Shown piece by piece: positions 35,612 through 60,838 of a DNA stretch of 64,000 nucleotides (position 1 is its first letter; each line of letters begins with the position of its first letter). The stretch is taken from the NCBI GenBank assembly GCA_031256715.1, contig JAIRQA010000012.1:525-64524 (forward strand), in the 5' to 3' direction. The notes beneath the pieces were generated by a model. That model was not told where the DNA came from. It did not search any database and saw nothing but the letters and a program-made list of their open reading frames with translations. The stretch comes from Coriobacteriales bacterium (GTDB taxonomy: Bacteria > Actinomycetota > Coriobacteriia > Coriobacteriales > UBA8131). A program made the position numbers and the translations under genes.

Positions 35612-35652
35612 AGCGCAGTTGCTCCTTTTAAAGGGGTAACTGCGCTGAGTTT
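35612..35652 (+). terminator. putative intrinsic terminator after the surface-protein gene
   Basis: Imperfect ~14-17-bp stem agcgcagttgctccttt / aaaggggtaactgcgct (35612-35646), followed by gagTTTTcg. A related copy of the 3' half recurs at about 35690-35725. Confidence 0.45.
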
Positions 35653-35710
35653 TCGTAGGGTAGTAAACTCTTTATGATCCTTTGGCGTCCTAGCGCCTTT
35701 TAAGGTGTAA

Positions 35711-37321
35711 CTATGCCGAGTTTTCGCAGACCTGTTTGCGCAAAGGCTTTATGCACAACAATAGCAAAATAATACCAAGCAGATCAGCAACTGCCAAGAA
35801 TAATAGCACCACTGCGGCATCAAGCCCAATTTGCAATAATGCACCGCCAATTACAGGAGACGCCACGGCACCCAAACGGCCGACACCTAAAGTAAAGCCA
35901 AGGGCACCTGTGCGTATGTGTGAGGCAAAGGCGTTAGAGACAAGCGTGTTGGTTAGGTTTTGTGCGCTTATGGCGCCAACACCGGCACAAAAGACCAGGC
36001 AGAACAATAAGATGGGGTTATCTATACGTAGAGCAATTGCAGACAATGAGACTGCAGCCAAAAGCGCGCAACTTATAGCAACAAGATTAACGCCAAGTTT
36101 GCCGGCAACTCTAGCGGTAAGTAGTGAGCCCAAGACACAACCCAAATTTAATGTCATCATTAATTGCAAGGAGTTGTCTAAAGGAATATTAAACTCTCGC
36201 ATTAATTGTACAAGCCAGGTGCTAATCCCATAATATGCCATAAGAAACATAAAGGTGGCAAGCGCAAGTAGTAGCAACAATAAGCGACCTGTCTTCCCAA
36301 AAGCTCGCAGACTAAAACGTGAGCATTGGGCATCTTCGGCTTCTTGCTTGGTGGTAGACGTGCTTACTTCTCTACATAATTCTTTATATAATTCACCATT
36401 CGTTTCATTGCATATCTTTGCGTTTGCAGTTGCATTAGTTTTTGCGCTAATTTTTGCTGCGGAGATTTGCTTTGCCTCGCCTTTTGCAAGTTTGCTATAC
36501 GTTGCTAAGACTAACGCCAAGCCTATGACTCCCGCAACAACCATTATCATTCGCCATCCGCTTAGGGCAAGAATCAGGCTTGTGCTTGCTGCGGCAGCAA
36601 ATCCACCCAAGGGTACTCCAGACATCACCAGGCTAATTACAAAGGCAGACTGACTTTGCTTGCACTGCCCGCGCGCAAAAGATAGAGCGACAGGAAGCAC
36701 TACTCCAAGACCAAGGCCCGCCAATGCACGTGATGCGCCCAGAACATAAAGGTTTAAAGAGATAGCTCCAAGAAACATTGCCAAGCTAAACCAGATGATT
36801 CCTAAGCATATGGTTTTGGTGTGTCCCCAGAAGTTATTAACTTTGCCTGCGAATATGCCACCTACGAACATGCCAAGAAATGTGATACTGCCAATGGCAC
36901 CGCCTATGACTTTGTTTACACCCATAGAGGTATCTTGTATTAAAGATGGCAAAACACTGCTGTAGGCAATGAGGTCAAAGCCTTCGCAAAACATTACAAG
37001 TGCAACTATGACAACAAGCGACCAAGAACATTTTGTATGCGCTTGAGTTGATGACTGCGTTTGAGCAAGCTGCTGCGCTTGTGTTTGAGTTTTAGCGTGC
37101 TCGTGCTCCTGCTTCTGCACTTGCGCTTGAGTTGGCATATGCGCTTGGATGTTGGGTGAGTTGTTTAGGGAATCGCTTGGTAACTTGTTTGGTAAATGAA
37201 GATCGCTCTTAGTGCGCACATCATCCCGCTCGCTTTCCCGCACATCATCCCGCTTGCTATCCCGCCCATCATTTCCTACATCATTTCCTACATCATCCCG
37301 TTCGCTATTATTCACGTTCAT
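35711..37321 (-). CDS. MFS transporter with ~100-aa charged/low-complexity N-terminal extension
   Basis: Predicted 12-TM profile and a motif-A-like loop (GGIFAGKVNNFWGHTKTI). The N-terminus has DDV(G/R)-type repeats. It lies immediately downstream of the AraC gene on the same strand. Confidence 0.85.
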   Translation of the reverse strand: MNVNNSERDDVGNDVGNDGRDSKRDDVRESERDDVRTKSDLHLPNKLPSDSLNNSPNIQAHMPTQAQVQKQEHEHAKTQTQAQQLAQTQSSTQAHTKCSWSLVVIVALVMFCEGFDLIAYSSVLPSLIQDTSMGVNKVIGGAIGSITFLGMFVGGIFAGKVNNFWGHTKTICLGIIWFSLAMFLGAISLNLYVLGASRALAGLGLGVVLPVALSFARGQCKQSQSAFVISLVMSGVPLGGFAAAASTSLILALSGWRMIMVVAGVIGLALVLATYSKLAKGEAKQISAAKISAKTNATANAKICNETNGELYKELCREVSTSTTKQEAEDAQCSRFSLRAFGKTGRLLLLLLALATFMFLMAYYGISTWLVQLMREFNIPLDNSLQLMMTLNLGCVLGSLLTARVAGKLGVNLVAISCALLAAVSLSAIALRIDNPILLFCLVFCAGVGAISAQNLTNTLVSNAFASHIRTGALGFTLGVGRLGAVASPVIGGALLQIGLDAAVVLLFLAVADLLGIILLLLCIKPLRKQVCENSA

Positions 37322-37342: not shown

Positions 37343-37481
37343 TCACACGAAACGCTAGTTGCCGGCGATTTCGTTTCGCTTGCGGCTATGCAAGCTATTC
37401 TCAACAAAATTCACACGAAACGCTAGTTGCCAGCATTTCCGTTTCGCTTGCGGTTGTACAAGTTATTCTCAACAAAATTCA
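37343..37481. repeat. 68-bp tandem duplication x2 between the AraC stop and the MFS start
   Basis: Copies start at 37343 and 37411. Each contains the inverted repeat cgaaacg...cgtttcg. Confidence 0.85.
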
Positions 37482-39618: not shown

Positions 39619-41441
39619 TGGCATACGCTATAGAATTTAAAGACGTAAGTTTTAGTTATGGTGCTTTATCAGAGCAGAAAAACGCTGTGCTTTCTAACAT
39701 TCACTTAAACGTGGCGCAAGGTGAATGCGTTTGTGTTACAGGCTCATCCGGATGCGGTAAGACTACACTCACGCGACTCGTTAATGGCCTTATTCCTTCT
39801 TTTTATGAGGGCACAAAGCAAGGTGAGGTTTTTGTTAATGGCATAGAGCTTGAGCAATGGGAGATGGACGAACTTTGTCGTGCGGTTGGGTCGGTGTTTC
39901 AAAACCCACGCAGTCAGTTCTTTAATTTAGACACGACGTCTGAACTTGCCTATGGTTGCGAGAATCTAGGGGTTAGTCGCGCAGAAACCCTGAGTAATGT
40001 TACTCGCGCGGCGGAGCTTTTAAACCTTCAGCATCTTTTAGATCGTGACATACACGATCTTTCTGGTGGCGAGCGCCAGCTACTGGCACTAGGCGCGGCG
40101 TGTGCCATGGGTGCTGACATCTTTGTTTTAGATGAGCCCACAGCCAACCTTGACGCGATTGCAACACAGGCGGTAAAGCGTACACTTCAGGCTCTTAAAA
40201 GCCAAGGGAAAACTATTCTTATGGTAGAGCATCGCCTGCATTGGCTTGATGGTTTGGTAGATCGCATGGTGTGCATGAGCGATGGGCGCATTATTAACGA
40301 TTATACAGTTAGCGAGTTTTGCAGATTGTCTACGGATGAGTTGGCTTTGATGGGGCTGCGTGCTTGGACGCTTTGCGATTTGCGTGTAAGCAAACATGAG
40401 ATAAACGCTTGCGAAAACGAACTACAAAATAGCGATGCGATCACAGTGGCACCATTTAGCATTCAGGCCGATAGCCTGCGTGCCAAACACCGTAAAAACA
40501 ATGAGGTGCTTAAGGGTCTGTCGTTTACGGTAACAGGGGGTCACGCGATTGCTGTCGTGGGGCGCAACGGACAGGGAAAGTCTACGTTGGCACATGTTAT
40601 TGCGGGACTTATGCGCGAGACCTATGGTGGCATCTCTGTTGACGCTCGCCCGCTTAGCGTGCGCGACCGCGTTGGCAACATCTATTTGGTGTTACAAGAA
40701 TCTGGGTATCAGCTTTTCGCTTCTAGCGTGCGCAAGGAGTTTACTATTGGCATGAAATCTGTAAGCGAAAATGACATGGCAGAAATTGATGATTTAATTT
40801 CGCGCTTTGCGCTTGTAGATAAAAGCGAGCGTCATCCGGCAAGTTTGTCGGGAGGCGAAAAGCAGCGGCTTGCCTTGGCGGTTGGCATTCATGCCGGAGC
40901 AAAGCTTTTAGTGCTAGATGAACCAACAAGTGGCTTAGATTATACAAATATGCGTCGCTGTGCCTTAGAGATTCGGCGACTTGTAAATTCTGGTCGTTGT
41001 GTTTTTGTAATCACGCACGATGTAGAGCTGGTTGCGGCGGCTTGCGATCAGGTTATAGAGGTAAATCGTGGTAGGGCGCATAGCACTTATGAGCTTAATG
41101 AGCGCACTTTGCCACGTGTGCTAAATATTTTGGCACCTGATTATGGCGAGTGTGCGCATGAGCAAGTGGCCTCGCATGAAAGCGAAAAAACGGCTTCACA
41201 TGAGCATGAGCAAGTGGTTGTGCGTGAAGACGAAAATTCGGCTTCGCATGAACGTGAACAAGTTGTTGCGCGCGGGCAAGACGAAGTGCTTATGCGCGGG
41301 CAAGACGAAGCGGTTGTAGTATCTGGCCTGCAAGCGCAAAGAAGGGATGTTGTTTATGCGCAGGAGCAAACGTTAAATGGCGCCGTCTTTTCTCGACATA
41401 AAAAAACTTTAAATGACAGGACGCAAGATATTCCGCCCTAA
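39618..41441 (+). CDS. ECF transporter ATPase, fused duplicated ABC domains (EcfA-EcfA')
   Basis: Two Walker A motifs (GSSGCGKTT, GRNGQGKST), two signatures (LSGGERQ, LSGGEKQ), and Walker B motifs IFVLDEPT / LLVLDEPT. The ATG overlaps the EcfT stop. About 100 aa of repeat-rich C-terminal tail. Confidence 0.9.
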   Translation: MAYAIEFKDVSFSYGALSEQKNAVLSNIHLNVAQGECVCVTGSSGCGKTTLTRLVNGLIPSFYEGTKQGEVFVNGIELEQWEMDELCRAVGSVFQNPRSQFFNLDTTSELAYGCENLGVSRAETLSNVTRAAELLNLQHLLDRDIHDLSGGERQLLALGAACAMGADIFVLDEPTANLDAIATQAVKRTLQALKSQGKTILMVEHRLHWLDGLVDRMVCMSDGRIINDYTVSEFCRLSTDELALMGLRAWTLCDLRVSKHEINACENELQNSDAITVAPFSIQADSLRAKHRKNNEVLKGLSFTVTGGHAIAVVGRNGQGKSTLAHVIAGLMRETYGGISVDARPLSVRDRVGNIYLVLQESGYQLFASSVRKEFTIGMKSVSENDMAEIDDLISRFALVDKSERHPASLSGGEKQRLALAVGIHAGAKLLVLDEPTSGLDYTNMRRCALEIRRLVNSGRCVFVITHDVELVAAACDQVIEVNRGRAHSTYELNERTLPRVLNILAPDYGECAHEQVASHESEKTASHEHEQVVVREDENSASHEREQVVARGQDEVLMRGQDEAVVVSGLQAQRRDVVYAQEQTLNGAVFSRHKKTLNDRTQDIPP

Positions 41442-41507
41442 GATCTAAGGCACCTATAGGACGCAAGATATTTTGCCTTAAGACCTAATGCGCCTATAGG
41501 ACGCAAC
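41418..41507. repeat. 40-bp tandem repeat x2.25 whose first copy contains the ECF-ATPase stop codon
   Basis: Units at 41418-41457 (TAA at 41439-41441) and 41458-41497, with a partial copy at 41498-41507. Confidence 0.9.
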
Positions 41508-44381: not shown

Positions 44382-46144
44382 TGGCAAATGCTAACATAGA
44401 TAATAAACAACATGCTAGCTTTTTTATGCGCAAGTATAATCTGTCTAAGCAAGGGACACGAGTCTTTTATCGTGGTTTAGTTTGGTCTGCCATATCTAAC
44501 ATTGTTAATATGGCACCTGCTCTTATCTTGCTTATGGCACTTGTAGATATCGTGCGCCCTTTAGAAAATGGCGAAAGTTACGCGATTGAGCCATGGAAAT
44601 ATCTGCTCGCGTTTTTACTAACACTGCTTGCGGTGGGTATCGCGCAGGCACGCAAGTATCGCGCTACATTTTGCGATACTTACGAAGAAAGCAGCCGCCG
44701 TCGTATTGGAATTGCCGAGCGCCTGCGCGTCTTGCCCCTGTCCTTTTTTAGCAAACGCGACCTGGCAGACCTAACAACTGTCATCATGGGCGACTCCGAA
44801 AACAATGAGTTTGCAATCTCGCACACATTACCGCAACTTTGGGGCATGGTTGCCTTCATAATTGTCTCTGCTGTCGCGCTGCTTATTTGCGATTGGCGTA
44901 TGGCTTTGGCAAGTCTTTGGGTTGTGCCTGTTGCCTTAGGCGTAGTTTATGCCAGCAGAAGCACACAGAGAAAAATGGGCCGAGCCGTGGCTAATGCCAA
45001 GGTAGAAAGTGCCGAGTCTATACAAGAGTTAATCGAGTGCGCTCAAGACATTCGCGCTTGCAACCGCCAAGAGATTGTTGACGAGCACTTGTTGCAAAAA
45101 TTTATTTATGTCGAGAAGATGCAAGGGCGCTATGAGCTCTTTGCGTCGGTGGCACTTACTTCGGCACGTTCTTTTTTACAACTGGGCATAGCCACAACGT
45201 TACTTGTGGGTGTGGCGCTTCTTGTTATGGGCAGTCTTAGCTTGCCAATGTTTTTGCTTTTTGTTTTGGTGGCAACCCGAATCTATGACCCGGTTACAGA
45301 AATGCTGATGAACATTTTGGCGACCTTTGCCGCAGACGTGAGCAACGAGCGACTTGCCGCCATAGAAAACCACCCTATTGCCGGTGGCACAACAAGTTTT
45401 GTTCCTGAAAGTTTTAATATCACGTTTAAGGATGTGCATTTTGCCTATGATGAGGACGCAGATCCGGTTTTACATGGCGTTTCATTTATAGCGCGACAAG
45501 GACAAACCACCGCATTGGTAGGTCCATCAGGCTCAGGAAAGACTACGGTTTCTAAACTTGCTGCACGTCTTTGGGATGCACGGGAGGGAACTATTTGCTT
45601 GGACAACACAGACGTTACTTCTGTAGATCCGGAAACTTTACTAAGCAACTTTTCTCAGGTGTTTCAGGATGTTGTCTTGTTTAGTGGCACGATACGCGAA
45701 AATATACGTCTTGGTAAACGCGATGCTACAGATGAAGAGATAGAGGCTTGCGCACATGCTGCACAGTGCGATGAGTTCATTTTGCGTTTGCCAAAAGGCT
45801 TAGACACAGAACTTGCAGAAAATGGCGCGACACTATCTGGCGGTGAACGACAGCGCATCTCTATCGCTCGCGCTTTGCTTAAAGACGCGCCCATAGTCTT
45901 GCTTGACGAAGCAACTGCATCCCTAGACCCAGAGAGCGAAACGCTGGTGCAGCAGGCCATTGCCACGCTTACGGCAGGCAAGACAGTGCTCATGGTTGCT
46001 CATCGCATGCGTACTGTGCTACATGCCGACCACATAGTTGTGCTTGATGGCGGTCGTGTGGTAGAAGATGGCGCTCCCGACGAGCTGCTTAAACATGAGG
46101 GAATGTTTAAGCATCTATGCCAGTTGCAGGGTGCGTTGTCGTAA
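44378..46144 (+). CDS. ABC transporter, fused permease-ATPase (partner of the previous gene)
   Basis: The ATGA overlap with the upstream gene (44378-44381) implies coupling. Walker A GPSGSGKTT, signature LSGGERQR, Walker B VLLDEAT. Confidence 0.9.
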   Translation: MMANANIDNKQHASFFMRKYNLSKQGTRVFYRGLVWSAISNIVNMAPALILLMALVDIVRPLENGESYAIEPWKYLLAFLLTLLAVGIAQARKYRATFCDTYEESSRRRIGIAERLRVLPLSFFSKRDLADLTTVIMGDSENNEFAISHTLPQLWGMVAFIIVSAVALLICDWRMALASLWVVPVALGVVYASRSTQRKMGRAVANAKVESAESIQELIECAQDIRACNRQEIVDEHLLQKFIYVEKMQGRYELFASVALTSARSFLQLGIATTLLVGVALLVMGSLSLPMFLLFVLVATRIYDPVTEMLMNILATFAADVSNERLAAIENHPIAGGTTSFVPESFNITFKDVHFAYDEDADPVLHGVSFIARQGQTTALVGPSGSGKTTVSKLAARLWDAREGTICLDNTDVTSVDPETLLSNFSQVFQDVVLFSGTIRENIRLGKRDATDEEIEACAHAAQCDEFILRLPKGLDTELAENGATLSGGERQRISIARALLKDAPIVLLDEATASLDPESETLVQQAIATLTAGKTVLMVAHRMRTVLHADHIVVLDGGRVVEDGAPDELLKHEGMFKHLCQLQGALS

Positions 46145-47385
46145 TGATGTCTGCGAGTGCATCTTTGCCAAAAGCTTCTCTGGTTGGTTCTTGTAAGACT
46201 AGCTTTTTGCCAATGACAACTGTGCCGGCGACTTCTTTAATTGGTGCAGCCCCTACAGCTTCTACAGCAGCATCCTTTTCTGCCATTAATGTGGCATATG
46301 TCATGCTTGATGGCTATGAACATGAAAGCGAAGCAAGAATTTCTTCATTAATCTCGCGCTTAAGCAGACGCGTGTCTGAGGCTCGTATAGAAAAAGCAAG
46401 GCGGTTGCGACAACCAATAGACAAGCTAGCGTCTTTAACCGCCGGGGTACTTATTAACATTGTTGCTGAACCTTTTAAGGATAGACGAACCCTGCCGCTT
46501 AACTACGAACACAATGAGCACAATGAGCGCTATGAGCACAATGAGTATAACGGCTTCAGCAACAAGGACAGCTCTGGCAAGAATGGCAGCTATAGCAACA
46601 ATGATGGCTATAGCTACAATGGCAGCTATAGCAACAATGGCTGTTATGGCAACAATGATGGCTATAGCAACAATGGCAGCTATAGCAAGCCCGATTTTCC
46701 AAATGCTATGGGGCTGCACTATAACCTCTCGCATAGCAGGGCAGTTGCTTGTTGCGCAGTCTCGCGGTTTCCCGTTGGCATAGATGTAGAGGGCTATATT
46801 CATCACTTTGACGAGCTTTGCGCGATGTGTTTAACAACTGACGAGGACAGGCATATTAAAAAGCAAGCAAATCGCGCCGAACGCGTTAGATGCTTTACAA
46901 GGCTGTGGACGCGCAAAGAGGCACTTGGTAAGTATATAGGCTGCGGAATAGACGAGAGCATCTTGCGTGCTGACTTACTTCATTGGCCTCAAGGAGCGAA
47001 AGCTATTCTTGCGTCGCGACGTGTTAGTGATATAGCTAACACAGAAATCGCAAGTGTGGCGTCTGGCACACGAACAGCGTCATACTCAGACGCAACGCGT
47101 GACACACGAACAGCGTCAAGCTCAGACGCAACGCGTAGCACAAGCGATACGGCCAGTGGTGTTCCTCAGATAACAACCTACGACTTGCACGAAGCGTGCA
47201 TGTCTGTTTGCGGTCATGGCGAGGTGCATGTTTCTTGTTATTCCTTAGACGAGGTTATTGCGCTTGCTACCTTAGCACCTACCACTTTGCATCACTGTGC
47301 CCAGACGCCTAGCGCTTCTGAGCACTGTGCCCAGACGCCAGTGTTGCAGAACCATTGTAAAACCGAATTACATGAAAGCGAATAA
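46144..47385 (+). CDS. 4'-phosphopantetheinyl transferase, Sfp type
   Basis: Motifs LSHSRAVACCAVSRFPVGIDVE and FTRLWTRKEALGKYIGCG (the W/FxxKE(A/S)xxK motif). The start is uncertain. ATG 46144 overlaps the ABC stop (TAATG), while the conserved core begins near ATG 46303. A (N/G)(G/S)YSNN repeat insertion lies at about 46500-46690. Confidence 0.85.
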   Translation: MMSASASLPKASLVGSCKTSFLPMTTVPATSLIGAAPTASTAASFSAINVAYVMLDGYEHESEARISSLISRLSRRVSEARIEKARRLRQPIDKLASLTAGVLINIVAEPFKDRRTLPLNYEHNEHNERYEHNEYNGFSNKDSSGKNGSYSNNDGYSYNGSYSNNGCYGNNDGYSNNGSYSKPDFPNAMGLHYNLSHSRAVACCAVSRFPVGIDVEGYIHHFDELCAMCLTTDEDRHIKKQANRAERVRCFTRLWTRKEALGKYIGCGIDESILRADLLHWPQGAKAILASRRVSDIANTEIASVASGTRTASYSDATRDTRTASSSDATRSTSDTASGVPQITTYDLHEACMSVCGHGEVHVSCYSLDEVIALATLAPTTLHHCAQTPSASEHCAQTPVLQNHCKTELHESE

Positions 47386-49065: not shown

Positions 49066-52000
49066 ATGCAATCTGTTGATACTTGCGAAATTGCAGATGA
49101 TACTTGCGAAATTGCAGATATTATTCACAAACATACGCTACCATACGGCGGCAAGGATGAGACAAATCTAATTAAGGCAGGCATGAATTCATTGGCAATT
49201 ATGCGCCTTGCAAACCAATTGCGTCGTCAAGGTGCGCGAAAAGTCACTTTCTCTAAGCTGATGGTAGAACCTACACGCTGTGCTTGGCTAAAACTTGCGG
49301 GAGCAAATGTATCTAGTGCAACATGTGAAGTTTTCGCAACAACAACCGCGCCATCTACATTAACAATCGCGGCAGCCGAACAGACGGCCGTGACAAATGA
49401 ACAAACAACCGCACCATCTACACCAACAATCGCGACTGCCGAACAGACGGCCGTGACAAATGAACAAACAACCGCGTCCAATGAAGCAACAATCGCAACC
49501 ACTTCTAAAGACGACTTTCAACCTTTTGCGCTCACAGACATTCAACGAGCCTACTTTATTGGACGACAAGATGGAATACCCATGGGAGGCAATGGCTGCC
49601 ACGCATATCTAGAATTGCATGGACAAAATGTTGATCCCAAACGTTTACAGGATGCCTGGCAAATGCTATTTAATACTCATGCTATGTTGCGAGCATACTT
49701 TACAGATGATGGCAAGCAATGTATTAGCGAACAAGCATCACCATCTGCAAGTGAGCTTGTTGTCTGCAACTTAAGCATGTTAGAGCCAACGCGTGCACAG
49801 CAAGAGTTTATGGCTATTCGCGAAAAACTCGCGCATAGGCGTTTAGATGTAGCATCTGGACAAACATGTGGACTTTGCCTTGTCTTGCTTCCAAATTCTT
49901 TAACGCGGGTTTGCTTTGACATCGATCTTCTTGTCTGCGATGTTCAGAGCTTTCAGATTCTGTTACGCGATTTGGCCGCTGCCTATGCAGATGCTAGCTT
50001 ACCTTTGGCAGATCCTGCTTGGAGTTTCGCATCGTATCTTGCTCATGAAGATGTCTTGGCTAAGGCAGCTTCGCTAGAGCGCGAACAGGACGCGGCATAT
50101 TGGCAAGCACGCATCAGCAATCTTGCGCACGGTCCTAAGCTGCCAACTGTTGTGGACCCAGATACTGTCTTTTCTCCACATTATACAAATTATGCGCATC
50201 AGGTTTCTTCTGAAGCTTATGAGGCGTTAAAGCATCACGCGAATGCTCGCGGCGCGACGGTGGCCATGGTGTTGCTTACAGCCTATGCGCAAATCATTGC
50301 GGCGTGGAGCGAGAATCAGCGCTTCCTGATTAACATGCCGGTTTTTGCCCGTAATACCAGCGTTTCCGGCATTGAGGATGTCGTCTCGGATTTTTCGGAC
50401 ATACTTTTGTTTGAGGTTAACTGCCAAGAGCCTGCGACTTTTGAGGAACGCTTAAAGCAGATTAGCGAGCGTTTTTTGCAGGACATGGCGCATCGTTCCT
50501 ACAATGGTATCGCGGTGCAGCGCGATATCGCGGCGGCAGGAGGACCACAAATGGGCTTGGCGCCGCTGGTGTTTGCCTGCAATCTTGGCGAGCAGCTCTT
50601 AACGGATGTCTGCTTAAAGCATCTGGGCGAGCTTGGCTATATGACCTCGCAGACTCCGCAGGTACAAATAGATTGCCAGGCTTTTGACCACAAACAAGGA
50701 CTGCGACTTTCTTGGGACGTTGCTTTGGAGCTGTATCCAAATGGCATGTGTCAAACGATGTTTGTTGCGTTTTGTAATTTTGTCGAGAAACTCGCGGCTT
50801 CAGACGATGCCTGGCTTGCGCCCATTGATGTTTTGCCCAACGAACAGCGAATGCGTCGCAAGGCAGAGCTTGAGTTAATGCTTGAGCAGTCAGCGTTAGA
50901 TGCAGATTTGGCGCCGTTGCGCAAGGAGCTGCGTGAGGGGCAGACGTCAGGTGCAGATTTGGCGCCGGTGCGCGAGGAGTTGCGTGAGGGGCAGACGTCA
51001 GGTGCAGATTTGGCGCCGCTACATGCAGCTTTTGTTGTTAACGTGCATTCTAAACCTGAGGCAATAGCTCTAATAGATGCGCAGTCGGGAGAGAAAAGCA
51101 GTTATCGCCAGCTATATTTACGTGCCGGTGCCATTGCTGAATACATTCTTAGTGCCGGCACACAACATGGTGAGCTTGTTGCCATATGCCTTAAGCGAGG
51201 GCGCGACCAGGTGTGCGCGATGCTTGGTATTTGCATGGCTGGTTGCGCGTATGTGCCTATAGATGTTTCTCAGCCGCAGTCTCGTAAGCGCTTGATGGCA
51301 GAGAAATTAATGGCGCGGTATGTGCTTACGAGCAAGTCGTTGGCAGATGAGAGTACGATGTTTGAGCATGTTTTAGCTATAGAGGATGTAGCCGAGGTAG
51401 CTGAGGTTGCGTTTGAGGATAGTGCAGAATTTGCCATATCACAGTCACGCATTAATGATCTGGTTAAAAAGCATATGCCGCAAGCTAATGATACCGCATA
51501 CATCATCATGACCAGTGGTTCTACGGGAACGCCCAAGGGCGTAGAGATGTCTCATGGCGCAACATGGAACACACTTAGCGATGTTAATTCACGTCTGAAC
51601 GTAGGTGTGGGCGACACAATGTTAGCTGTATCTAACTATGATTTTGACCTTTCGGTCTACGATGTCTTTGGCATCTTGGGTGCCGGAGCGACCTTGGTTT
51701 GCATGCCCGATGATGCCCGACGCGACGCGGCGCGCGAGTTAGATTTTGTTTTGCGCTACAAGGTGACATTATGGAACACCGTCCCTATGCTTTTAGACAT
51801 GCTCATTACCGAGGCCGAGAGTAAAAAAGCCGAGCTGCCCTTGCGCGTTGTCATGCTTTCTGGTGATTGGATAGGCTTAGACTTACCGCAGCGCCTGAAA
51901 AATCTGGCTGCGAATTGCCGTTTTATTGCGATGGGCGGCGCCACCGAGGCAGCGGTTTGGTCTAACTGGCAAGAAGTTAATTTGCCTATACCAACGCATT

Positions 52001-55000
52001 GGAAGAGTATTCCTTATGGTCGTCCACTGCGGGCGCAATGCTATCGTGTGGTTGATGCTTGTGGCAACGATCGTCCGGATTGGGCAATTGGCGAGCTTCT
52101 TATTGGCGGTGTTGGTGTTGCCAAAGGATATCGCGGCGACGAGGAACTTACAGCCGCGCATTTTTTGCAACAGGATAAGACGCGCTGGTATCGCACTGGC
52201 GACATGGGACGCTTTTGGGATGATGACACGATAGAATTTTTGGGGCGGCGCGATTTTCAGGTTAAGGTAAAAGGACATCGTATAGAACTTGGCGAGATAG
52301 AATCTGTGCTTGTAGAGCATCCTGACGTCTTAGCTTGTGCGCTTTGTGTTGCACAGTCTTCTAATCAGCTAATTGCTCTGGTACAACCAGTTGCAATGCA
52401 TTCAGATATGGGACAACCAGTTGCAATGCATTCAGATATCTTAGAACCAAGCACCAACGCTATACAGCCAAGCACAGGCCATGCGCTAGACCTTGATTCT
52501 TTGGCAGACTTCATGGCGCAACGACTACCCGCTTACATGGTGCCATCGCGCTTTGTGCTTATAGATGCCCTACCTATTTCTGCAAATGGAAAGCTTGATC
52601 GCAAGGCAATTGCTGCGCTTGCCCAACAGGCGGCCGAAACTCTTAGAACAGACGACGATTTGCCTAAGACAGCCACAGAAGAATGCATCATCCAAATTTG
52701 GGAAGAGGCGATGGGCATTAAAAACATTGGGCGCAACGAAAGTTATTACGAGTTGGGCGGTAATTCCTTAATAGCAACACGTGTAATTGGCGTCGTGCGC
52801 GAGCGTTTAAACATCAATCTTACCACTGCAGATGTGTTTACGCATACAACCGTAGCCGAGCTTGCTCGCTTAATAGACGAGCGTGTAAGTTTTTCTCGAC
52901 ATAATAACCAGCCAGATAGTCAGCCAAGTAGCCAATCAAGTAGCTTACCAAGCAGTCAACAAGATAACCAAATTAGCAGCCAACAAAAAGATTATTCTAA
53001 GACGAGGAGCATAGTGCAAGACACACAAGACATTCAAGGCATTCAAGACATTCAAGAGGCGCAAAACGCTCAAGACACTCAAGACGCAATAACAAGCGCG
53101 CAGTTACAGGCAAGCGCGGCAAAACTTCCCGAGCTTGCGGCGCGCGAAGATGAGCTAGACGCTCCTTTTGCCCTTACTGCTTTGCAACGCGCTTATCTAA
53201 TTGGGCGCATGAAAGGTATGGTTTTAGGAGGGCAGGCGACGCGCGCCTATTTAGAGGTTACCGTTAGCAACTTAGATATGAGTCGCCTTGGTGCGGCCAT
53301 GACAGAGTTGGTTAAAGTTCAAAGCGCGCTGCGTATTTCGGTTGATGCCGCAAGCGCCACGCAGGTTATTAACGAAAAAGTGCCTTTGGTTGTCATTCCC
53401 CTTGCCGATGTCTCATACCTTAACAATGATGCCTATGACGAGTTCCTAGATAACAAGCGTGAGCAAATGTTTAATCACGAGTTTGATTTATCGCGTCCGT
53501 TTCTTTGGATGATGGAGGTTACGCGCAGAAATGACGAGTGGCATATTCACTTTTGCCATGATGGCATTCTTATGGATGGCTGGAGTTGTGAGCGCCTATT
53601 TGCCGACTTAGAAACCCTGTATCATAATGGCACATTTGAAGTGGGTATCTCTTATCGCGATTATGTTTATTGGTTGCAAGAGATTCATGATAGCGAGACC
53701 TATACAAAAGATGAGCAGTATTGGCTGGCCAAAGCTCAGGAATTTCCCGAAACTCAAGCTCTTAAGCCAGCTTGCCTTCCAGAGGCAATTACTAATCCCG
53801 AAACTGCTCATGTGACACGTACGATTTCACTCGATCGCTTTAATGCCATCAAGCGCGCTGCTGCCTCTTACGAAATGACAGTTTTCGCGGCCATGCTTTG
53901 TGCCTTTGGCAAAGCGCTTGAACTTAATGGAGGCTGCCACGATTTTCTTATTAACACGCCAGTTGCTTATCGACCTTTAACCAGTAGCAACGCTCAAGTT
54001 AATAGCGATCTTTATAAGCTTCTTGGAGAATGCTCAGATTATCGTCTTTTTCATTTTAGTACTCTAGCAAACGAGACGATTGCCCAAACTGCCAAAAAGG
54101 TATTCGCTCAACTTACAGACGAGGGTTTGCACACAGCGTATCGTGGCAGTGACCTCTCGCGTGCAATGCAGCAATATTCGGGGGCGTCTGCGCTTGCGCC
54201 AATAGTGTTTACAAGTACCGCCGAGGTAGATCTTAAGCCGTCAACATGGTATCGCAAAGTGGCGTCGCGTACGCATACTAGCCAGGTTTGGATGGACGCT
54301 GTGGTCATGCCCATAGATCAAGGTATCATGTTAAACATAGATTACGTAGATGGTTTGCTTGAGGCAGGTACACCTGAGCGCGTGGCAGACGCTTTTGTTA
54401 GGGCACTAGATTTACTTGTAGATGAACCCGGTGCCTGGGACAAATTAACTCAGTTGCCATTGTCGCCAACCGAACAAGAACTCATTAACCAAACTAATGC
54501 GACAGATGTTTTGCCTGTTGCCACAACATATGCGCCATTGCTTCGCAATGCCTTTAGCAATTATGCTAGCAAGATAGCAATTAAAAATGTCGAGAAAAAC
54601 CTGACCTACCGCGAGTTAGAACAGTTAACGAGTTGCATTAGCGCGGCAATAGAAGCAAAGCTGGCTGAGCCTGCTGAGCCTGCTGAGCTTGATGCTGCGC
54701 CCGCTTCCGTCTTAGACAAAGACACTCGCGCAAGAATTGGTATAGCAGTTGGCAAGGGTGCAAAACAGGTGGCCGCCGCATTGGCGTGTGCTGCTGGTGG
54801 CTACCCCTTTATGCCTATAGATATCGAATACCCTGCACAAACAATACGCGCATGCTATCTAGCTAGTAAGCTAGCATTTGTTATTGTAGACTCGCAAACC
54901 GCGCACCTTGTTCCCGAAGATGTCCCAACACTTAATGTTTGCGAAGCGCTTCCTAAAGAAGGCTCAATCACATGGCGTGACGCTTGCGAAAGCGATGTGT

Positions 55001-56745
55001 TGGCAATTATTAACACATCTGGTTCTACGGGCGCACCAAAAGGTATACAGCTAACCAACGAGGGAGTGGTTAACTGTTTGCTTTGGAGCAAAGAAGCATT
55101 TAGTATAGACGAAACCAGCTGCGTGCTGGCAATAACAAATTTCGCCCACGACATGGCGCTATATGATACGCTTGGGCCATTGCTTTCGGGCGCAAGCCTT
55201 GCAGTTTTAGATGAGCAGACACGCCGCGAACCACGTGCTTGGGCAAAAACTATGGATGTTTGCAATGTGACTTTTTGGAATTCAGTACCGGCGCTAATGC
55301 GTATGTTGCTTGAGGTGGCAGGCCCTATAAGCGCAAACGCGCTGAAGTCGCTGCGTTGCGTAGTGCATGGTGGAGACTGGCTAGACCCTGCCTTGGCGCG
55401 TCAGATAACAGAAACGTTTCCCAATGTTCGCCTATTTAATGTTGGTGGTCCTACAGAAACAACTATTTGGAATATCGCTCATGAGGTTACCGACGACGAC
55501 ATTCAAAGTGGCGTTATTCCTTATGGGCGCCCAATCTGGAACACCAAATATTTTGTGCTTGATGACCGCATGAACCTTTGCCCACCTGAAGTGGCTGGCA
55601 TTATGCATGTTGCCGGCGTTGGGGTTTCTGCAGGTTATATAAATGCAGTTGCGCTTAATGATGTCGTCTCTGACGATGTTGCCTCTAAAGATGTTGTCTC
55701 TGACGATGTTGCCTCTAAAGATGTTGTTGGTACTTTAACTACCGCAACAGATCTTGATGCAAAAGACAATGGTTCTTGCGATGAACCTCAGGTCTTTACG
55801 AACTTAAATGGAATGCGCGTCTGCTGCACTGGCGATCGCGGAATGTATTTGCCTAGCGGTGAGCTGCGCATTTTGGGTCGCGCCGATTTGCAAGTTAAGG
55901 TTAATGGAAAGCGCATAGAGATTGGCGGTATAGAGCGCCTTTTAAATCAGATAGATGGCATAAGCGCAAGTGCCGTAGTTGTAAATGAGGCTGTTGGACG
56001 ATTGATCGCCTATTTCATTGGCGATACCAATGATGCCATTATTCCCGAGGATGAAATTCGCTCGCAACTGTCGTGCTGGCTGCCAGCCTACATGATACCA
56101 ACGCGTTTTATTGCCATTGAACAGATGCCACTAACACGCAATGGCAAACCAGATCGCAAGGCATTAGCTAAGTATGAATTGCCTGGACACAGTTGCTCAG
56201 ATCATAGCCGTGAGGCTGCACTGCCTAAAGCAGCGGAAATTAAGAGTGTGGCAGCTACAGAGAATGCAGAACAGCTTACGCCTGCTATTACGAAAGAACA
56301 GCTTACGCCTGCTACTAGGATAGAGCAACAAACTTCAGTCACTGCGATAGAGCAACAAGCGTCTTTTGCATCGTTAATTTCTTCAAGCTCGTTAGACGCC
56401 TTAGCTGATACTAGCTTGGCAGAAGCTTCTGCAGCAGATGAGCTTGCATTTTTAGGCAAAGCCGGCAATGACGCTGCAGTTTTGTCATCAAACAAGAACG
56501 TAAATGAAGAGGCAGAAAATCGCTTTAATGATGTTTTATTAAAACTGGTGACATTTTGTCGCGAATCAATTGGCGATGAGACAATCCAGCCTGACGACAA
56601 CTTCTTTGCTATTGGTGGCGACTCGCTTACAGCAATGAAGATCGGTGCTTGGGCTTACGATCAATTTGGACGCGAACTTACGGTAGTGCAAATTATGGCA
56701 CAGCCCACAGTTAGAGAGTGGGCTGAAATCCTCTGTGATGAATAA
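49066..56745 (+). CDS. non-ribosomal peptide synthetase, ArCP-Cy-A-T-Cy-A-T (2559 aa)
   Basis: ArCP at about 49108-49305 (GMNSLAIM, Ser codon 49189). Cy1 at about 49519-50865 (PFALTDIQRAYFIGR; DLLVCDVQS = DxxxxDxxS at 49924-49950). A1 at about 51013-52620 (TSGSTGTPKG, FDLSVYD, LSGDWI, GGATEAAVWS, YRTGD, GRRDFQVKVKGHRIELGEIE, NGKLDRK). T1 at about 52663-52881 (GGNSL, Ser 52765). Cy2 at about 53161-54465 (PFALTALQRAYLIGR; DGILMDGWS at 53560-53586; IVFTST). A2 at about 54508-56163 (TSGSTGAPKG, HDMALYD, GGDWL, GGPTETTIWN, TGD, GRADLQVKVNGKRIEIGGIE, NGKPDRK). T2 at about 56518-56730 (GGDSL, Ser 56623). No TE, R or terminal C domain. Confidence 0.95.
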   Translation: MQSVDTCEIADDTCEIADIIHKHTLPYGGKDETNLIKAGMNSLAIMRLANQLRRQGARKVTFSKLMVEPTRCAWLKLAGANVSSATCEVFATTTAPSTLTIAAAEQTAVTNEQTTAPSTPTIATAEQTAVTNEQTTASNEATIATTSKDDFQPFALTDIQRAYFIGRQDGIPMGGNGCHAYLELHGQNVDPKRLQDAWQMLFNTHAMLRAYFTDDGKQCISEQASPSASELVVCNLSMLEPTRAQQEFMAIREKLAHRRLDVASGQTCGLCLVLLPNSLTRVCFDIDLLVCDVQSFQILLRDLAAAYADASLPLADPAWSFASYLAHEDVLAKAASLEREQDAAYWQARISNLAHGPKLPTVVDPDTVFSPHYTNYAHQVSSEAYEALKHHANARGATVAMVLLTAYAQIIAAWSENQRFLINMPVFARNTSVSGIEDVVSDFSDILLFEVNCQEPATFEERLKQISERFLQDMAHRSYNGIAVQRDIAAAGGPQMGLAPLVFACNLGEQLLTDVCLKHLGELGYMTSQTPQVQIDCQAFDHKQGLRLSWDVALELYPNGMCQTMFVAFCNFVEKLAASDDAWLAPIDVLPNEQRMRRKAELELMLEQSALDADLAPLRKELREGQTSGADLAPVREELREGQTSGADLAPLHAAFVVNVHSKPEAIALIDAQSGEKSSYRQLYLRAGAIAEYILSAGTQHGELVAICLKRGRDQVCAMLGICMAGCAYVPIDVSQPQSRKRLMAEKLMARYVLTSKSLADESTMFEHVLAIEDVAEVAEVAFEDSAEFAISQSRINDLVKKHMPQANDTAYIIMTSGSTGTPKGVEMSHGATWNTLSDVNSRLNVGVGDTMLAVSNYDFDLSVYDVFGILGAGATLVCMPDDARRDAARELDFVLRYKVTLWNTVPMLLDMLITEAESKKAELPLRVVMLSGDWIGLDLPQRLKNLAANCRFIAMGGATEAAVWSNWQEVNLPIPTHWKSIPYGRPLRAQCYRVVDACGNDRPDWAIGELLIGGVGVAKGYRGDEELTAAHFLQQDKTRWYRTGDMGRFWDDDTIEFLGRRDFQVKVKGHRIELGEIESVLVEHPDVLACALCVAQSSNQLIALVQPVAMHSDMGQPVAMHSDILEPSTNAIQPSTGHALDLDSLADFMAQRLPAYMVPSRFVLIDALPISANGKLDRKAIAALAQQAAETLRTDDDLPKTATEECIIQIWEEAMGIKNIGRNESYYELGGNSLIATRVIGVVRERLNINLTTADVFTHTTVAELARLIDERVSFSRHNNQPDSQPSSQSSSLPSSQQDNQISSQQKDYSKTRSIVQDTQDIQGIQDIQEAQNAQDTQDAITSAQLQASAAKLPELAAREDELDAPFALTALQRAYLIGRMKGMVLGGQATRAYLEVTVSNLDMSRLGAAMTELVKVQSALRISVDAASATQVINEKVPLVVIPLADVSYLNNDAYDEFLDNKREQMFNHEFDLSRPFLWMMEVTRRNDEWHIHFCHDGILMDGWSCERLFADLETLYHNGTFEVGISYRDYVYWLQEIHDSETYTKDEQYWLAKAQEFPETQALKPACLPEAITNPETAHVTRTISLDRFNAIKRAAASYEMTVFAAMLCAFGKALELNGGCHDFLINTPVAYRPLTSSNAQVNSDLYKLLGECSDYRLFHFSTLANETIAQTAKKVFAQLTDEGLHTAYRGSDLSRAMQQYSGASALAPIVFTSTAEVDLKPSTWYRKVASRTHTSQVWMDAVVMPIDQGIMLNIDYVDGLLEAGTPERVADAFVRALDLLVDEPGAWDKLTQLPLSPTEQELINQTNATDVLPVATTYAPLLRNAFSNYASKIAIKNVEKNLTYRELEQLTSCISAAIEAKLAEPAEPAELDAAPASVLDKDTRARIGIAVGKGAKQVAAALACAAGGYPFMPIDIEYPAQTIRACYLASKLAFVIVDSQTAHLVPEDVPTLNVCEALPKEGSITWRDACESDVLAIINTSGSTGAPKGIQLTNEGVVNCLLWSKEAFSIDETSCVLAITNFAHDMALYDTLGPLLSGASLAVLDEQTRREPRAWAKTMDVCNVTFWNSVPALMRMLLEVAGPISANALKSLRCVVHGGDWLDPALARQITETFPNVRLFNVGGPTETTIWNIAHEVTDDDIQSGVIPYGRPIWNTKYFVLDDRMNLCPPEVAGIMHVAGVGVSAGYINAVALNDVVSDDVASKDVVSDDVASKDVVGTLTTATDLDAKDNGSCDEPQVFTNLNGMRVCCTGDRGMYLPSGELRILGRADLQVKVNGKRIEIGGIERLLNQIDGISASAVVVNEAVGRLIAYFIGDTNDAIIPEDEIRSQLSCWLPAYMIPTRFIAIEQMPLTRNGKPDRKALAKYELPGHSCSDHSREAALPKAAEIKSVAATENAEQLTPAITKEQLTPATRIEQQTSVTAIEQQASFASLISSSSLDALADTSLAEASAADELAFLGKAGNDAAVLSSNKNVNEEAENRFNDVLLKLVTFCRESIGDETIQPDDNFFAIGGDSLTAMKIGAWAYDQFGRELTVVQIMAQPTVREWAEILCDE

Positions 56746-56753
56746 CAACTGCA

Positions 56754-57563
56754 ATGAATAACAGCTGCAAGGAAAAAATAATTGTAATGAATAACAACCA
56801 ACAAAAAGCCGCTATTCGCACAAACCCATGGGTGCTTTTCTCAACAGATTCTTTAATAGATGTTTCGGCACAGGTAATTTGTTTTCACGCTGCTGGGTGC
56901 CAGCCAACAGGCTTTGTAAGTTGGCGGCGATATTTTTCTAAGCAAGTTGCTGTTGTGCCCATTGTCTTGCCAATGCATGGCAGTCGTCTAAGGGAATGCA
57001 TGCCTTATAGCCTGCAAGAGATTGCCGGCAATTTTGTTGCCACGAGTTTAGAGCTATTCAGCCGCCCTACGATTTTGTTTGGGCATAGCATGGGTGCGAT
57101 GATTGCCTACGAGGTAGCCTGCTTGCTTGAGGCGCGTGGCAGATTGCCTTTGGCGCTTGTTGTTTCTGGGGCTCAGTCTCCAGACAGACGCGAGGTGGTA
57201 GATCGCACCATTGGGCTTACAGATGAAGAATTTCTTGATGTGTTGCGCGCCTATGGTAGCATCAGCGAAGAACTGCTGCAAAATCGCGAATTTTTAGATT
57301 ACTACTTGCCTGTTGCTCGCAGCGATTTTGCCCTATGCGAACGTTACAAGTGGCGGCGACAACCAGCGCTTATGTTGCCTATTCACACTTTTAATGGCGT
57401 GGATGATACCCATATTAGCAAGGATGGCATAGAGCAATGGAGCAGCTTTTCTAGGATTTGTTGTATGCATCATTTTTTTGATGGCGGGCATTTTTATTGC
57501 GACCAGAGCCCCGAAGAGGTGTGTGCGCGCATTGAAGCACTGATTAGAATGACATTACGATAG
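56754..57563 (+). CDS. type II thioesterase (alpha/beta hydrolase)
   Basis: GHSMGAMIAYEVA (GxSxG) and a C-terminal GGHFY, at about 250-270 aa as in YbtT/PchC/GrsT-type enzymes. Alternative start at 56787. Confidence 0.85.
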   Translation: MNNSCKEKIIVMNNNQQKAAIRTNPWVLFSTDSLIDVSAQVICFHAAGCQPTGFVSWRRYFSKQVAVVPIVLPMHGSRLRECMPYSLQEIAGNFVATSLELFSRPTILFGHSMGAMIAYEVACLLEARGRLPLALVVSGAQSPDRREVVDRTIGLTDEEFLDVLRAYGSISEELLQNREFLDYYLPVARSDFALCERYKWRRQPALMLPIHTFNGVDDTHISKDGIEQWSSFSRICCMHHFFDGGHFYCDQSPEEVCARIEALIRMTLR

Positions 57564-57787
57564 AAGAAAATGCTTTTGGCTTCTGGGCATTTTAAGCTAG
57601 GCATCGAAGCGCAGATTAGAATGAACTTACGTTAGACGTAAATGCTTTGGGCTTTGGGTATTTTGAGCCAAGCATCGAAGCGCAGATTAGAATGAGCTTG
57701 TGATAGACGTAAATTAGAGTGAACTTATGATGGACGTAAGTTAGAGTGAACTTATGATGGACGTAAGTTAGAGCAAACTTACTTTAG
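57529..57787. repeat. ~72-bp tandem repeat x2.6 followed by 27-bp repeat x2.5; the first copy is the 3' end of the thioesterase gene
   Basis: 72-bp units at 57529-57600 (includes ...RIEALIRMTLR-TAG, stop at 57561-57563), 57601-57671 and 57672-57713 (partial). 'ttagagtgaacttatgatggacgtaag' occurs at 57714 and 57741, with a degenerate copy at 57768. Confidence 0.9.
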
Positions 57788-57826
57788 ATGTTGATAAGAA
57801 TGAACACACGAGGAGAGATCAAAACA

Positions 57827-59278
57827 ATGACAATTACACAGACAGATGAGCACAAGGGCAGTACAGATTGTGCAAATCACGCAGCTACTGCAGAGCTAAT
57901 TGATCACACTGGCTTTATGGTTGACAACAAAGGCAATTCAATTTTTCAGGTACCATTTCAGGCACGCTATCCTGTGCAGGGCTTAGTTATCTTTGGTAAG
58001 GGCAGAACCGGCCGTCCCTTTTATGGAGGCCTTGGCGGTGGTTTGCTTGTAGAAGGCGATCTTGATCTTTGCCTTGTAGAAGAAGCGGTGCAGCGCCTGT
58101 TTGATGACATCGACAGCACGCGCATCATGTTTCCCGCATCACCTGATTTACCAATACATTATCGAATTCGCGATCATGTTAGCTTTAAGCTGGAAGTATT
58201 TCCTATTTATGAAGGCAGCTTTAAAGAAAGGGTTGCGGCGGCGGCTGCCAGTGAGTACCCGCACTTATCAACATTAAAAACTTATGTAGATGTTGCCTTA
58301 CGTGTTGTCGTTTACGATTTAGGCATAGCTCCAAGCGGCAAACATGGCTGGGTCATCGCTTTTTCTGCAAGTCATGTTGCGGTTGACGACCAAGGCATCT
58401 TTTTAGTGATTGATCAATTTATGGCCAACTATAGAGGCGAAAACCGCATGGTTGTGCACCAACATAGTCTTTTAGATTGCCTTAATTATATGAATGATAA
58501 CCCAGACTGCGATGACCCTGAGGCAAATCGTGCCTATTGGAGGCGCGAGATGCAGGGCTTTGTAACACCATCTTTACATGAAAGCAATCCCGATCGTACA
58601 ACGCCCATAGACCCCGCTGATTTAAAGTTTATGCTAGACACAGAGCAAGTAAAAAGGCTTGCGCTTGCCTGCCAGACAACTTTGCCATCGTTATTTATGG
58701 CAGCCTTGCATATTGGGATAGCTGCTGGCTTTAATTTGCGCGATTCGGCAATTTGCATGTTAACTGAGGCGCGCCCAAACTATATATTTTGGAATACGGT
58801 TGTGCATGGACTAATGTCAATGAACCATCGTATGCAAATTGAAGACAGCGAAAGCTTCTTAGAGTTCGCGCGAAGAACTGTTCTAAAAATGTCTTCGAAC
58901 TTGCAAAACCTTGCCAGTGAAGAATACGTTGGCGGCGCGGCACCTGTGTATTATACCTATGTTTCGCCGGTGAAATCTCCAAATCTTGGTGAGGGGCTTG
59001 ATTGCAAAACGTGGATGCCTGACCTCATTGGCGATGATGCCGGTTATTTGCCTTGGCCAGAGGTGGCAATTGTAGAGGGCGCAGACACTATGGAGTTTAT
59101 GCTCTTGGTGCTAGATCAATCCATTTGTTTCTTTACACCTAATGAGGCACGCGCTTTTGCCTATGGGGTCAGGCGCTGCCTTGAGCTTGCAATAGAAAAC
59201 CCTGGTGTTTTAGTAGCAGATATTGTTGAGAAGGTACAAACCGAGCTTAGGGCGAAGGGGGTGATAACAGAATTTTAA
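57827..59278 (+). CDS. free-standing condensation-domain-superfamily protein (paralog 1)
   Basis: HxxxD-type motif AFSASHVAVDDQGIF (58370-58390), aligning with the NRPS C3 motif (MHHxISDGWS). About 480 aa, a VibH-like size. The start was chosen at ATG 57827 (SD AGGAGAG at 57811-57817); the ORF opens at 57788. Confidence 0.6.
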   Translation: MTITQTDEHKGSTDCANHAATAELIDHTGFMVDNKGNSIFQVPFQARYPVQGLVIFGKGRTGRPFYGGLGGGLLVEGDLDLCLVEEAVQRLFDDIDSTRIMFPASPDLPIHYRIRDHVSFKLEVFPIYEGSFKERVAAAAASEYPHLSTLKTYVDVALRVVVYDLGIAPSGKHGWVIAFSASHVAVDDQGIFLVIDQFMANYRGENRMVVHQHSLLDCLNYMNDNPDCDDPEANRAYWRREMQGFVTPSLHESNPDRTTPIDPADLKFMLDTEQVKRLALACQTTLPSLFMAALHIGIAAGFNLRDSAICMLTEARPNYIFWNTVVHGLMSMNHRMQIEDSESFLEFARRTVLKMSSNLQNLASEEYVGGAAPVYYTYVSPVKSPNLGEGLDCKTWMPDLIGDDAGYLPWPEVAIVEGADTMEFMLLVLDQSICFFTPNEARAFAYGVRRCLELAIENPGVLVADIVEKVQTELRAKGVITEF

Positions 59279-60702: not shown

Positions 60703-60705
60703 CTT

Positions 60706-60838
60706 CGTAGGGGCGCGCCTGTGTCAGGCAAAGTCGCACGTAGGGGCGACCTTCGGTCGCCCGTCTGTGTCAGGCAAAGCAGCTCCCGTAGGGGCGCGCC
60801 TGTGTTCGCCCGCTTGATGAAGTCGCGTTCGCCTGCCT
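60706..60838. repeat. REP-like array, family A variants (3 units)
   Basis: cgtaggggcgcgcctgtg..., cgtaggggcgacc-ttc-ggtcgcccg (60740-60763) and cgtaggggcgcgcctgtgttcgcccg. It starts 4 nt after the stop at 60702. Confidence 0.85.

Follow-up and report, generated by a model that had tools for sequence, protein, structure and literature searches.

Why should a gene end, stop codon included, inside the first unit of a tandem repeat array? The question is raised by the gene for a type II thioesterase in a 64-kb stretch of one uncultured, gut-type Coriobacteriales genome (contig JAIRQA010000012.1; hereafter the window, which is the scope of all counts below unless relatives are named), where the last codons and the TAG of the gene are repeated in the spacer ahead of the next gene of a non-ribosomal peptide synthetase (NRPS) operon. 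A preliminary description of the same DNA had reported this as a pattern recurring at several genes. The recurrence was borne out: using Tandem Repeats Finder (TRF) and the sequence itself, every array that it had listed was found to exist, at or within a few bases of where it had been placed, and three further stop-spanning duplications were detected, at sepF, at the NRPS stop/thioesterase start and at a minus-strand gene of the major facilitator superfamily (MFS). The explanation that we favour, with a probability of roughly 0.7, is a lineage-specific excess of slippage-type short tandem duplication that is filtered by selection. That stop codons fall within arrays is in all likelihood a neutral side effect of how densely tandem duplications occur.

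Density and placement of tandem arrays

Tandem arrays were defined as TRF calls merged at a score of at least 50. The window holds 41 of them, together covering 6.06% of its bases, and order-3 Markov shuffles yielded 0–2. Among 75 loci (5–23 kb) of other bacteria, the median coverage was 0.30% (maximum 2.2%) with 0.87 arrays per 10 kb; relative to these the window has about 7 times the array density and about 20 times the coverage. This density of tandem duplication is the striking aspect of the locus. The median array has a period of 30 nt, a copy number of 2.6 and a copy identity of 90% (range 67%–100%), and several arrays have nested periods. The spread of copy identity, together with the nesting, points to repeated rounds of duplication over a long time, in a process that is still under way.

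The share of bases in arrays was 27.8% for non-coding and 3.5% for coding DNA, and half of the repeat bases lie inside genes, distant from gene ends. Between genes, arrays occupy the junctions of the series S16–KH–rimM–trmD, ftsZ–yggS–sepF–proC and NRPS–thioesterase–condensation, that is, between co-oriented operon genes. The five divergent or convergent spacers (1,291 nt) were found to hold no TRF-level array, against 4.5 expected (P=0.012).

In-frame arrays inside genes

All 22 arrays that lie fully inside genes have periods divisible by three, for which the chance probability is 3e-11, compared with 7 of the 19 other arrays, which is the one-third expected by chance (Fisher P=6e-6). This strict in-frame rule points to duplication that is blind to the reading frame, followed by purifying selection.

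Several of the genic arrays correspond to protein segments that orthologues lack. The NRPS gene (49066–56745) encodes 2,559 aa as against 2,173–2,234 aa in orthologues, and its arrays at 49341 (49341–49496, plus strand, 63 nt, in frame), 49077, 50894, 52379, 53017 and 55648 coincide with insertions missing from the orthologous proteins. The phosphopantetheinyl transferase (PPTase; 46117–47385) has 422 aa versus 251–276 aa, and its in-frame arrays of 9 and 18/54 nt at 46510–46688 (plus strand) match a 56-aa insertion absent from orthologues. In TrmD (16782–17729; 311–315 aa against about 245 aa), an in-frame array of 9/27 nt occupies a loop (17056–17170, plus strand), and the same loop carries unrelated in-frame arrays in the related loci L093 (7275–7338), L094 (9545–9736) and L095 (10192–10305). 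The linker between GlyQ and GlyS likewise has unrelated in-frame arrays in the window (18808–18930) and in the related locus L052 (10894–10983). The TrmD loop and the GlyQ–GlyS linker look like recurrent insertion-tolerant sites.

In-frame repeats have enlarged two further proteins. The KH protein (15549–15956) has 135 aa against a comparison length of 84 aa, and the HycI-domain protein (5302–6672) has 456 aa, with the domain itself confined to residues 83–210.

Arrays in related genomes

Across the clade the tendency is a graded one: the number of arrays per 10 kb was 6.4 in the window, 3.5 in L094, 2.3 in L052, 2.2 in L093 and 1.0 in L095. Gene ends within or beside arrays were also seen in the relatives. 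In L052, the lepB stop falls in the first unit of a 20-nt array of 2.2 copies, and an array of 9 nt and 13.6 copies begins 4 nt past the glyQS stop, at the same junction as an array of the window to which it is unrelated; in L094, a 15-nt array of 4.5 copies directly follows the KH stop. The array-filled operon junctions of the window measure 132–273 bp compared with −4 to 18 bp in orthologous operons, and the state in the window is derived relative to these orthologues. Junction positions thus recur among relatives and unit sequences do not, which fits repeated origin at tolerant sites rather than a conserved functional element. The preliminary description had included a slippage-prone replication or repair background among its candidate explanations, and this idea gains support from the extreme density, the lack of arrays at orthologous loci and the in-frame rule (22/22).

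At the contig end of L093 (1–413), a composite array of 83-, 65- and 28-nt units, up to 98% identical, lies upstream of the first gene; it is a further sign of a minisatellite-prone clade.

The nearest relatives in the searched collections were distant, with identities of 68% for the thioesterase, about 59–73% for TrmD and at most 65% for GlyQS; the GlyQS matches from genome collections (distant Coriobacteriia, at most 65%) served as controls and not as sister strains. Exact-protein look-ups of the longest open reading frame (ORF) versions of the thioesterase and KH proteins returned no match, and the annotated thioesterase was found only in its own metagenome-assembled genome (MAG) and in one Logan contig of run SRR14710896. 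Scanning of metagenomes with RimM gave only relatives of 27–28% identity and no second strain.

The thioesterase gene end

The operon runs in the order PPTase, A-domain gene, NRPS, thioesterase and two condensation genes. The type II thioesterase gene (Pfam PF00975) extends over 56754–57563 on the plus strand, its annotated start being probably 56787. The array at its 3′ end covers 57529–57805 (plus strand) on the evidence of TRF, repeat families and the sequence, and an independent assembly is identical as far as 57743. TRF delimits it as 57529–57714, with a period of 71, 2.6 copies and 84% matches, and units of 72/71 nt begin at 57529, 57601 and 57672. The final 32 nt of the coding sequence and the TAG (57561–57563) fall in copy 1, which begins at 57529. 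A 27-nt sub-unit, whose source is the part of the 71-nt unit that holds the last codons and stop of the thioesterase, recurs at 57687, 57714, 57741 and 57768, with a remnant at 57793–57810 just ahead of the ribosome-binding site of the next gene. In all, the last seven codons plus TAG (the ATTAGAATGAnnTTACGnTAG motif) are present as one real gene end and six untranslated copies.

In an alignment, the thioesterase C-terminus (...VCARIEALIRMTLR before the stop) ends at the same position as those of nine homologues. This makes it a native gene end, from which the copies further downstream descend; the unit is of local origin.

Copy 2 (57601–57635) lies exactly 72 nt past copy 1 and in frame with it, and would encode IEAQIRMNLR and a stop, compared with the real IEALIRMTLR and stop. 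Three of the six substitutions between the two copies are synonymous, too few for a test of selection.

The condensation-domain gene 3′ of the thioesterase (57837–59278, plus strand) has its likely start at 57837, behind the ribosome-binding site GAGGAGAG. The spacer of 273 nt between the two genes (224 nt by longest ORF) is made up entirely of the array, and the corresponding gap in five relatives is 12, 18, −4, 15 and 12 bp. On the other side of the thioesterase, a 16-nt array of 3.8 copies at 56738–56798 (plus strand), absent from the preliminary description, spans the NRPS stop (56743–56745) and both candidate thioesterase starts (56754 and 56787). The orthologous NRPS operons of the related loci L082 and L083 (13–14 kb each) hold no arrays, compared with about 13 in the operon of the window.

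Other arrays spanning stop codons

At the end of the KH (KhpA-like) gene, an array of 18 nt and 3.0 copies (15941–15994, plus strand; 94%) has as its first unit the last four codons and the TAG at 15954–15956. The C-terminus of the protein, EVEIID before the stop, matches the EVEILD of L052 and has the same final residue; as judged from this homologue, the KH C-terminus is native. The spacer to rimM measures 132 nt here, compared with 11 (L052), 16 (L093) and 3 nt (L095). The fused energy-coupling factor (ECF)/ATP-binding cassette (ABC) ATPase gene ends in an array of 40 nt and 2.2 copies (41418–41506, plus strand), the first unit of which comprises the last seven codons and the TAA at 41439–41441. 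On the minus strand, the stop of the B12-binding radical SAM gene (25499–25501) lies in an array of 13 nt and 2.8 copies (25482–25517). Two duplications had been missed by the preliminary description: a 43-nt unit of 1.9 copies across the sepF TAA (11569–11650, plus strand), and two copies (35627–35658 and 35698–35729, 71-nt spacing, 81% identity, below the TRF threshold), one of which spans the stop of the minus-strand MFS gene (35711–37321). The convergent spacer between this MFS gene and a gene for a 2,603-aa leucine-rich repeat (LRR) protein also contains a hairpin with 18-nt arms (35611–35647), probably a bidirectional terminator.

In five of the six stop-spanning arrays the period is not divisible by three (43, 13, 40, 16 and 71), which implies that the downstream copies are untranslated. 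Stop reassignment or readthrough was considered and rejected on the same periods and on the thioesterase and KH homologues that end at the same residue.

In the preliminary description the pattern implied an enrichment of arrays at stop codons, which could not be demonstrated within the window. When the 19 arrays that touch non-coding DNA were re-placed randomly at positions that were at least half non-coding, 3.65 ± 1.66 spanned a stop, against 6 observed (P=0.14), and 3.84 spanned a start, against 3 observed. Start codons were taken as longest-ORF starts, a conservative choice for tests of proximity to stops. In co-oriented spacers, the upstream stop was closer to the arrays than the downstream start was by a one-sided Wilcoxon test (P=0.03), but only 10 of 16 junctions agreed by sign. 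This bias comes from the long spacers, where arrays start 0–50 nt past the stop and the 90–530 nt ahead of the next gene are nearly array-free. Stop-codon overlap is largely geometric, resulting from long arrays that fill short spacers.

The preliminary description had also suggested that copy-number change could vary C-termini, which is conceivable: without the thioesterase TAG, translation would run on in frame for 23 residues, the last of them nearly repeating the C-terminus of the protein itself.

Arrays in spacers after gene ends

Other arrays lie in the spacers that follow gene ends. A nested, TGCTAG-rich array with periods of 8 to 62 (3037–3196, plus strand) begins 2 nt past the cytochrome b TAG; the stop is probably part of a degenerate first copy, judging by the resemblance of the gene end GCACTAGT to the unit GTGCTAGT. 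An MFS gene on the plus strand is followed, 48 nt past its stop, by an array of 34 nt and 4.3 copies (5167–5311). Composite arrays with periods of 13, 17, 26, 30 and 11 follow the yggS stop (10566–10766, plus strand), and an array of 14 nt and 4.0 copies begins 12 nt past the proC stop (12730–12785, plus strand); the 530 nt between the latter and the next gene contain one further array only (12835–12871). The trmD–glyQS spacer holds an A/C-rich composite with periods of 7, 10, 20, 30 and 33 (17751–17911, plus strand), and the glyQS stop is followed by an array of 22/44 nt (21171–21285, plus strand; 22 nt in 5.1 copies). On the minus strand, an array of 68 nt and 2.0 copies (37343–37481) lies 9 nt past the stop of an AraC-type regulator gene.

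An array of 12/36 nt (16674–16767, plus strand) fills the spacer between rimM and trmD, whose length is 132 nt in the window compared with 1 nt in L052. Over 16650–16781 the 12-nt unit CAACTATGATGA gives rise to 16 stops, all of them in the one frame that rimM and trmD have in common, the remaining two being free of stops.

Genomic context

The window is about 89% coding, with 38 genes, nearly all on the plus strand; its GC content is about 46% and its GC skew is positive throughout. Besides the NRPS operon, the gene content includes an [NiFe] hydrogenase large subunit, cytochrome b and the HycI-domain protein; ftsZ, yggS, sepF and proC; ribosomal protein S16, the KH protein, rimM, trmD, the fused glyQS and a kinase/pyrophosphorylase; and the B12-binding radical SAM gene, the 2,603-aa LRR protein and ECF and ABC transporter genes.

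Origin of the arrays

Under the favoured explanation, the arrays, with units of 9–71 bp that are each copied from local sequence, usually in 2–5 copies, would have accumulated at an unusually high rate. The mechanism that we infer is replication slippage or template switching between nearby short homologies, and the cause may lie in replication or repair that has changed, in weak selection, or in both. Existing repeats would promote further rounds of duplication. Selection would purge copies that break the reading frame, damage folded domains or move a gene away from its promoter or ribosome-binding site. Within genes, copies would persist only if they keep the frame and lie in a loop, linker or tail that tolerates them, and promoter and ribosome-binding regions would stay clean. 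A duplication from the last codons to beyond the stop would leave the protein unchanged, since translation ends at the first stop, and one that covered a start codon would create a decoy start. At a tight ancestral junction (−4 to 18 bp) a duplicated unit would have to take in a gene end, of which the 3′ end should be harmless. The downstream copies would then be untranslated pseudo-ends that diverge and re-duplicate, an example being the 27-nt sub-array, which stems from the 71-nt thioesterase unit. Duplication combined with a selective filter would in this way account for the stop in the first unit, the recurring stop triplets, the lean towards the stop side and the in-frame arrays within genes. 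We further speculate that the lower GC content compared with relatives (46% vs 48–68%) would fit relaxed selection.

Four points weigh against this explanation. Convergent spacers, which it predicts to be the most tolerant, hold no TRF-level array (three spacers, 632 nt in total, one of them with a sub-threshold duplication). The excess of stop-spanning over start-spanning arrays (6 vs 3, or 1 with the likely true starts) is in the predicted direction and not significant. The comparison with homologues that shows a native C-terminus covers only two genes with stop-spanning arrays, those for the thioesterase and the KH protein. Finally, a genome-wide excess is an extrapolation from 64 kb of one genome.

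A different view is that the arrays are kept by selection as 3′ modules, whether as back-up stops, spacers that uncouple translation, buffers against 3′-to-5′ decay or signals for transcript ends. The nearness of arrays to stops rather than starts would agree with this, as would the arrays at the glyQS and KH junctions of L052 and L094, and for certain mycobacterial junction repeats, the MIRU-VNTRs compared below, a correlation between length and the expression of a downstream gene has been reported in M. tuberculosis (PMC2734929). Arrays also show a modest surplus of stop triplets and CTAG over other spacer DNA: the number of CTAG sites per kb is 13.7 for non-coding arrays, 4.4 for the remaining spacer DNA and 2.7 for genes, and the tetranucleotide is present in 7 of 18 units. 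However, these counts are inflated by repetition, each unit being counted several times, and with TAG terminating 12 of the 38 genes the richness in CTAG is consistent with units that were seeded at TAG stops and then amplified. Arrays at corresponding junctions in relatives are unrelated in unit and period, the majority of relatives do with gaps of −4 to 18 bp between the genes, and the in-frame repeats within enzymes are left unexplained.

Nor did the search for functional elements reveal a shared one. No base composition or RNA structure was common to the arrays, with folding z-scores near 0 except for the 14-nt proC array and a palindromic family described below. Terminator-like sites numbered 25 in the window compared with 21.6 ± 6.1 expected, with only two inside arrays; a scan with Rfam had no hits, and one for tRNAs gave nothing associated with arrays. 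Two candidates were discarded: the shared motif AACTAGAA, the 8 matches of which (1.75 expected) come from just four independent loci, the excess being amplification within two arrays, and a 60-codon open stretch before glyQS, considered as a coupled ORF, which lies in a T-poor array without a start codon. The back-up stops and 3′-untranslated modules proposed in the preliminary description therefore find no support in common sequence, structure, composition or terminator signature, and we consider maintenance as 3′ modules unlikely.

It could also be that gene 3′ ends are mutational hot spots, for example through replication–transcription conflicts or complexes stalled at termination. The window has six to seven stop-spanning duplications among its 38 genes, the arrays of long spacers begin close behind the stop, and the near-uniform gene orientation with positive GC skew suggests that the genes are probably on the leading strand. 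Set against this are the half of repeat bases that lie inside genes far from their ends, the overlap with stops that does not rise above random placement, and the operon-internal junctions, which are not sites of transcription termination; the observed asymmetry, moreover, is already predicted by uniform duplication and a filter. Hot spots at gene ends accordingly seem improbable. The more specific proposition that the stop-spanning arrays are made preferentially at gene ends by termination-coupled duplication, or selected as spacer or 3′-buffer modules and as material for C-terminal extension, we regard as very doubtful; if it held, the clade would be a natural system of actively remodelled gene ends.

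It is highly improbable that the arrays stem from a family of mobile or dispersed repeats with insertion sites at the borders of genes. One family in the window does behave in this way, a palindromic family resembling repetitive extragenic palindromic (REP) elements that forms tandem clusters downstream of genes at 22146–22330, 25168–25349 and 60703–60830 (arrays at 22197, 25221 and 60739). Its core is GTAGGGGCGAAC...GTTCGCCC, that is, CGTAGGGGCGAAC-TGT-GTTCGCCCG, with stem variants that keep the pairing, and its arrays fold far more stably than shuffles (z = −3.1 and −4.2). The interspersed repetitive units of mycobacteria (MIRUs), moreover, occupy operon junctions and overlap the ends of flanking genes (PMC12548453). 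However, when each array was compared with the whole window by blastn, 39 of 41 matched no other locus and the REP-like family was the only one shared; for the thioesterase and KH genes, the first unit consists of the gene's own native end. No MIRU-like coupled ORF with a usable start codon was found to end at a downstream start, and most spacers have several stops in all three frames.

The idea that the arrays are assembly artefacts, prompted by the origin of the contig in a short-read MAG and by a Logan contig that breaks only within the exact 27-nt repeat (leaving the copy number of that sub-array uncertain), can be set aside as extremely improbable. Over 2,046 bp (55698–57743), a stretch that takes in the 71-nt unit as far as its first 2.6 copies, the window agrees without a difference with the independent assembly that Logan provides for run SRR14710896 (L081). 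For most arrays, a read pair exceeds the length of the array and the copies have diverged. The features recur in relatives, whose sequences come from different samples and assemblers, and 22 of 22 genic arrays respect the reading frame, which an artefact would not do.

Significance

If the excess of slippage-type duplication is genome-wide, this would be a rare bacterial case of growth of both genome and proteins by minisatellite-scale tandem duplication. Operon junctions would have grown from about 10 bp to 130–270 bp, and enzymes would have been enlarged by 15–70% (about 350 aa in the NRPS, 150 aa in the PPTase and 65 aa in TrmD). The arrays would also provide a natural read-out of insertion-tolerant places in a bacterial genome, and the clade would be a candidate system for tracing the replication or repair defect that releases such duplications. 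For annotation, pseudo-3′ ends and decoy starts may mislead gene callers, and short-read assemblers break in arrays.

Comparison with known systems

A literature search for Coriobacteriia tandem repeats, and for the run and assembly accessions, gave nothing relevant. The preliminary description, which knew of no described function for the pattern, nevertheless overlooks two comparable systems, the MIRU-variable number tandem repeats (MIRU-VNTRs) at mycobacterial operon junctions and the proliferation of tandem repeats in Portiera.

MIRUs are a single dispersed and apparently mobile family at 41 loci, with an internal ORF coupled to the downstream start at a spacing of −4 nt and a function that is debated (PMC2734929, PMC12548453). 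The likeness is considerable: both systems occur in Actinomycetota, with head-to-tail units of tens of bp between co-oriented operon genes that touch the gene ends. The arrays of the window differ in that each has its own unit, copied from the adjacent gene 3′ end, in that they have no shared consensus unit (39/41 unique) and in that they have no coupled ORF. REP elements and bacterial interspersed mosaic elements (BIMEs), with a short GC-rich hairpin unit in clusters downstream of genes, resemble three loci of the window only, and the stop-spanning arrays are not explained by these REP-like loci.

Ordinary minisatellites or VNTRs share with the window arrays their locus-specific local units, low copy number, in-frame occurrence within genes and nested periods. 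The difference is one of density. An alignment of five E. coli genomes gave only 18 minisatellite loci other than palindromic units (PMC2884548), compared with about 14 arrays under similar criteria in the 64-kb window alone (unit of at least 20 bp, at least 2 copies and at least 90% matches, counted from the TRF output).

The closest precedent for the overall syndrome is Portiera aleyrodidarum of Bemisia tabaci, in which a lineage-specific burst of tandem repeats fell mainly between genes and spacers are larger than in a sister lineage (Sloan and Moran 2013; PMC3673631). That burst was read as a change in mutation spectrum tied to the loss of dnaQ, mutL and other replication and repair genes (PMC3673631). 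The window is similar in its repeat density, far above that of relatives, and in its enlarged orthologous spacers (132–273 vs −4 to 18 bp). The repeats of Portiera, however, are mainly 7-bp microsatellites in a 0.36-Mb obligate endosymbiont genome that is 69% coding, whereas those of the window have units of 9–71 bp in DNA that is about 89% coding, and they also enlarge proteins in frame and begin in gene 3′ ends.

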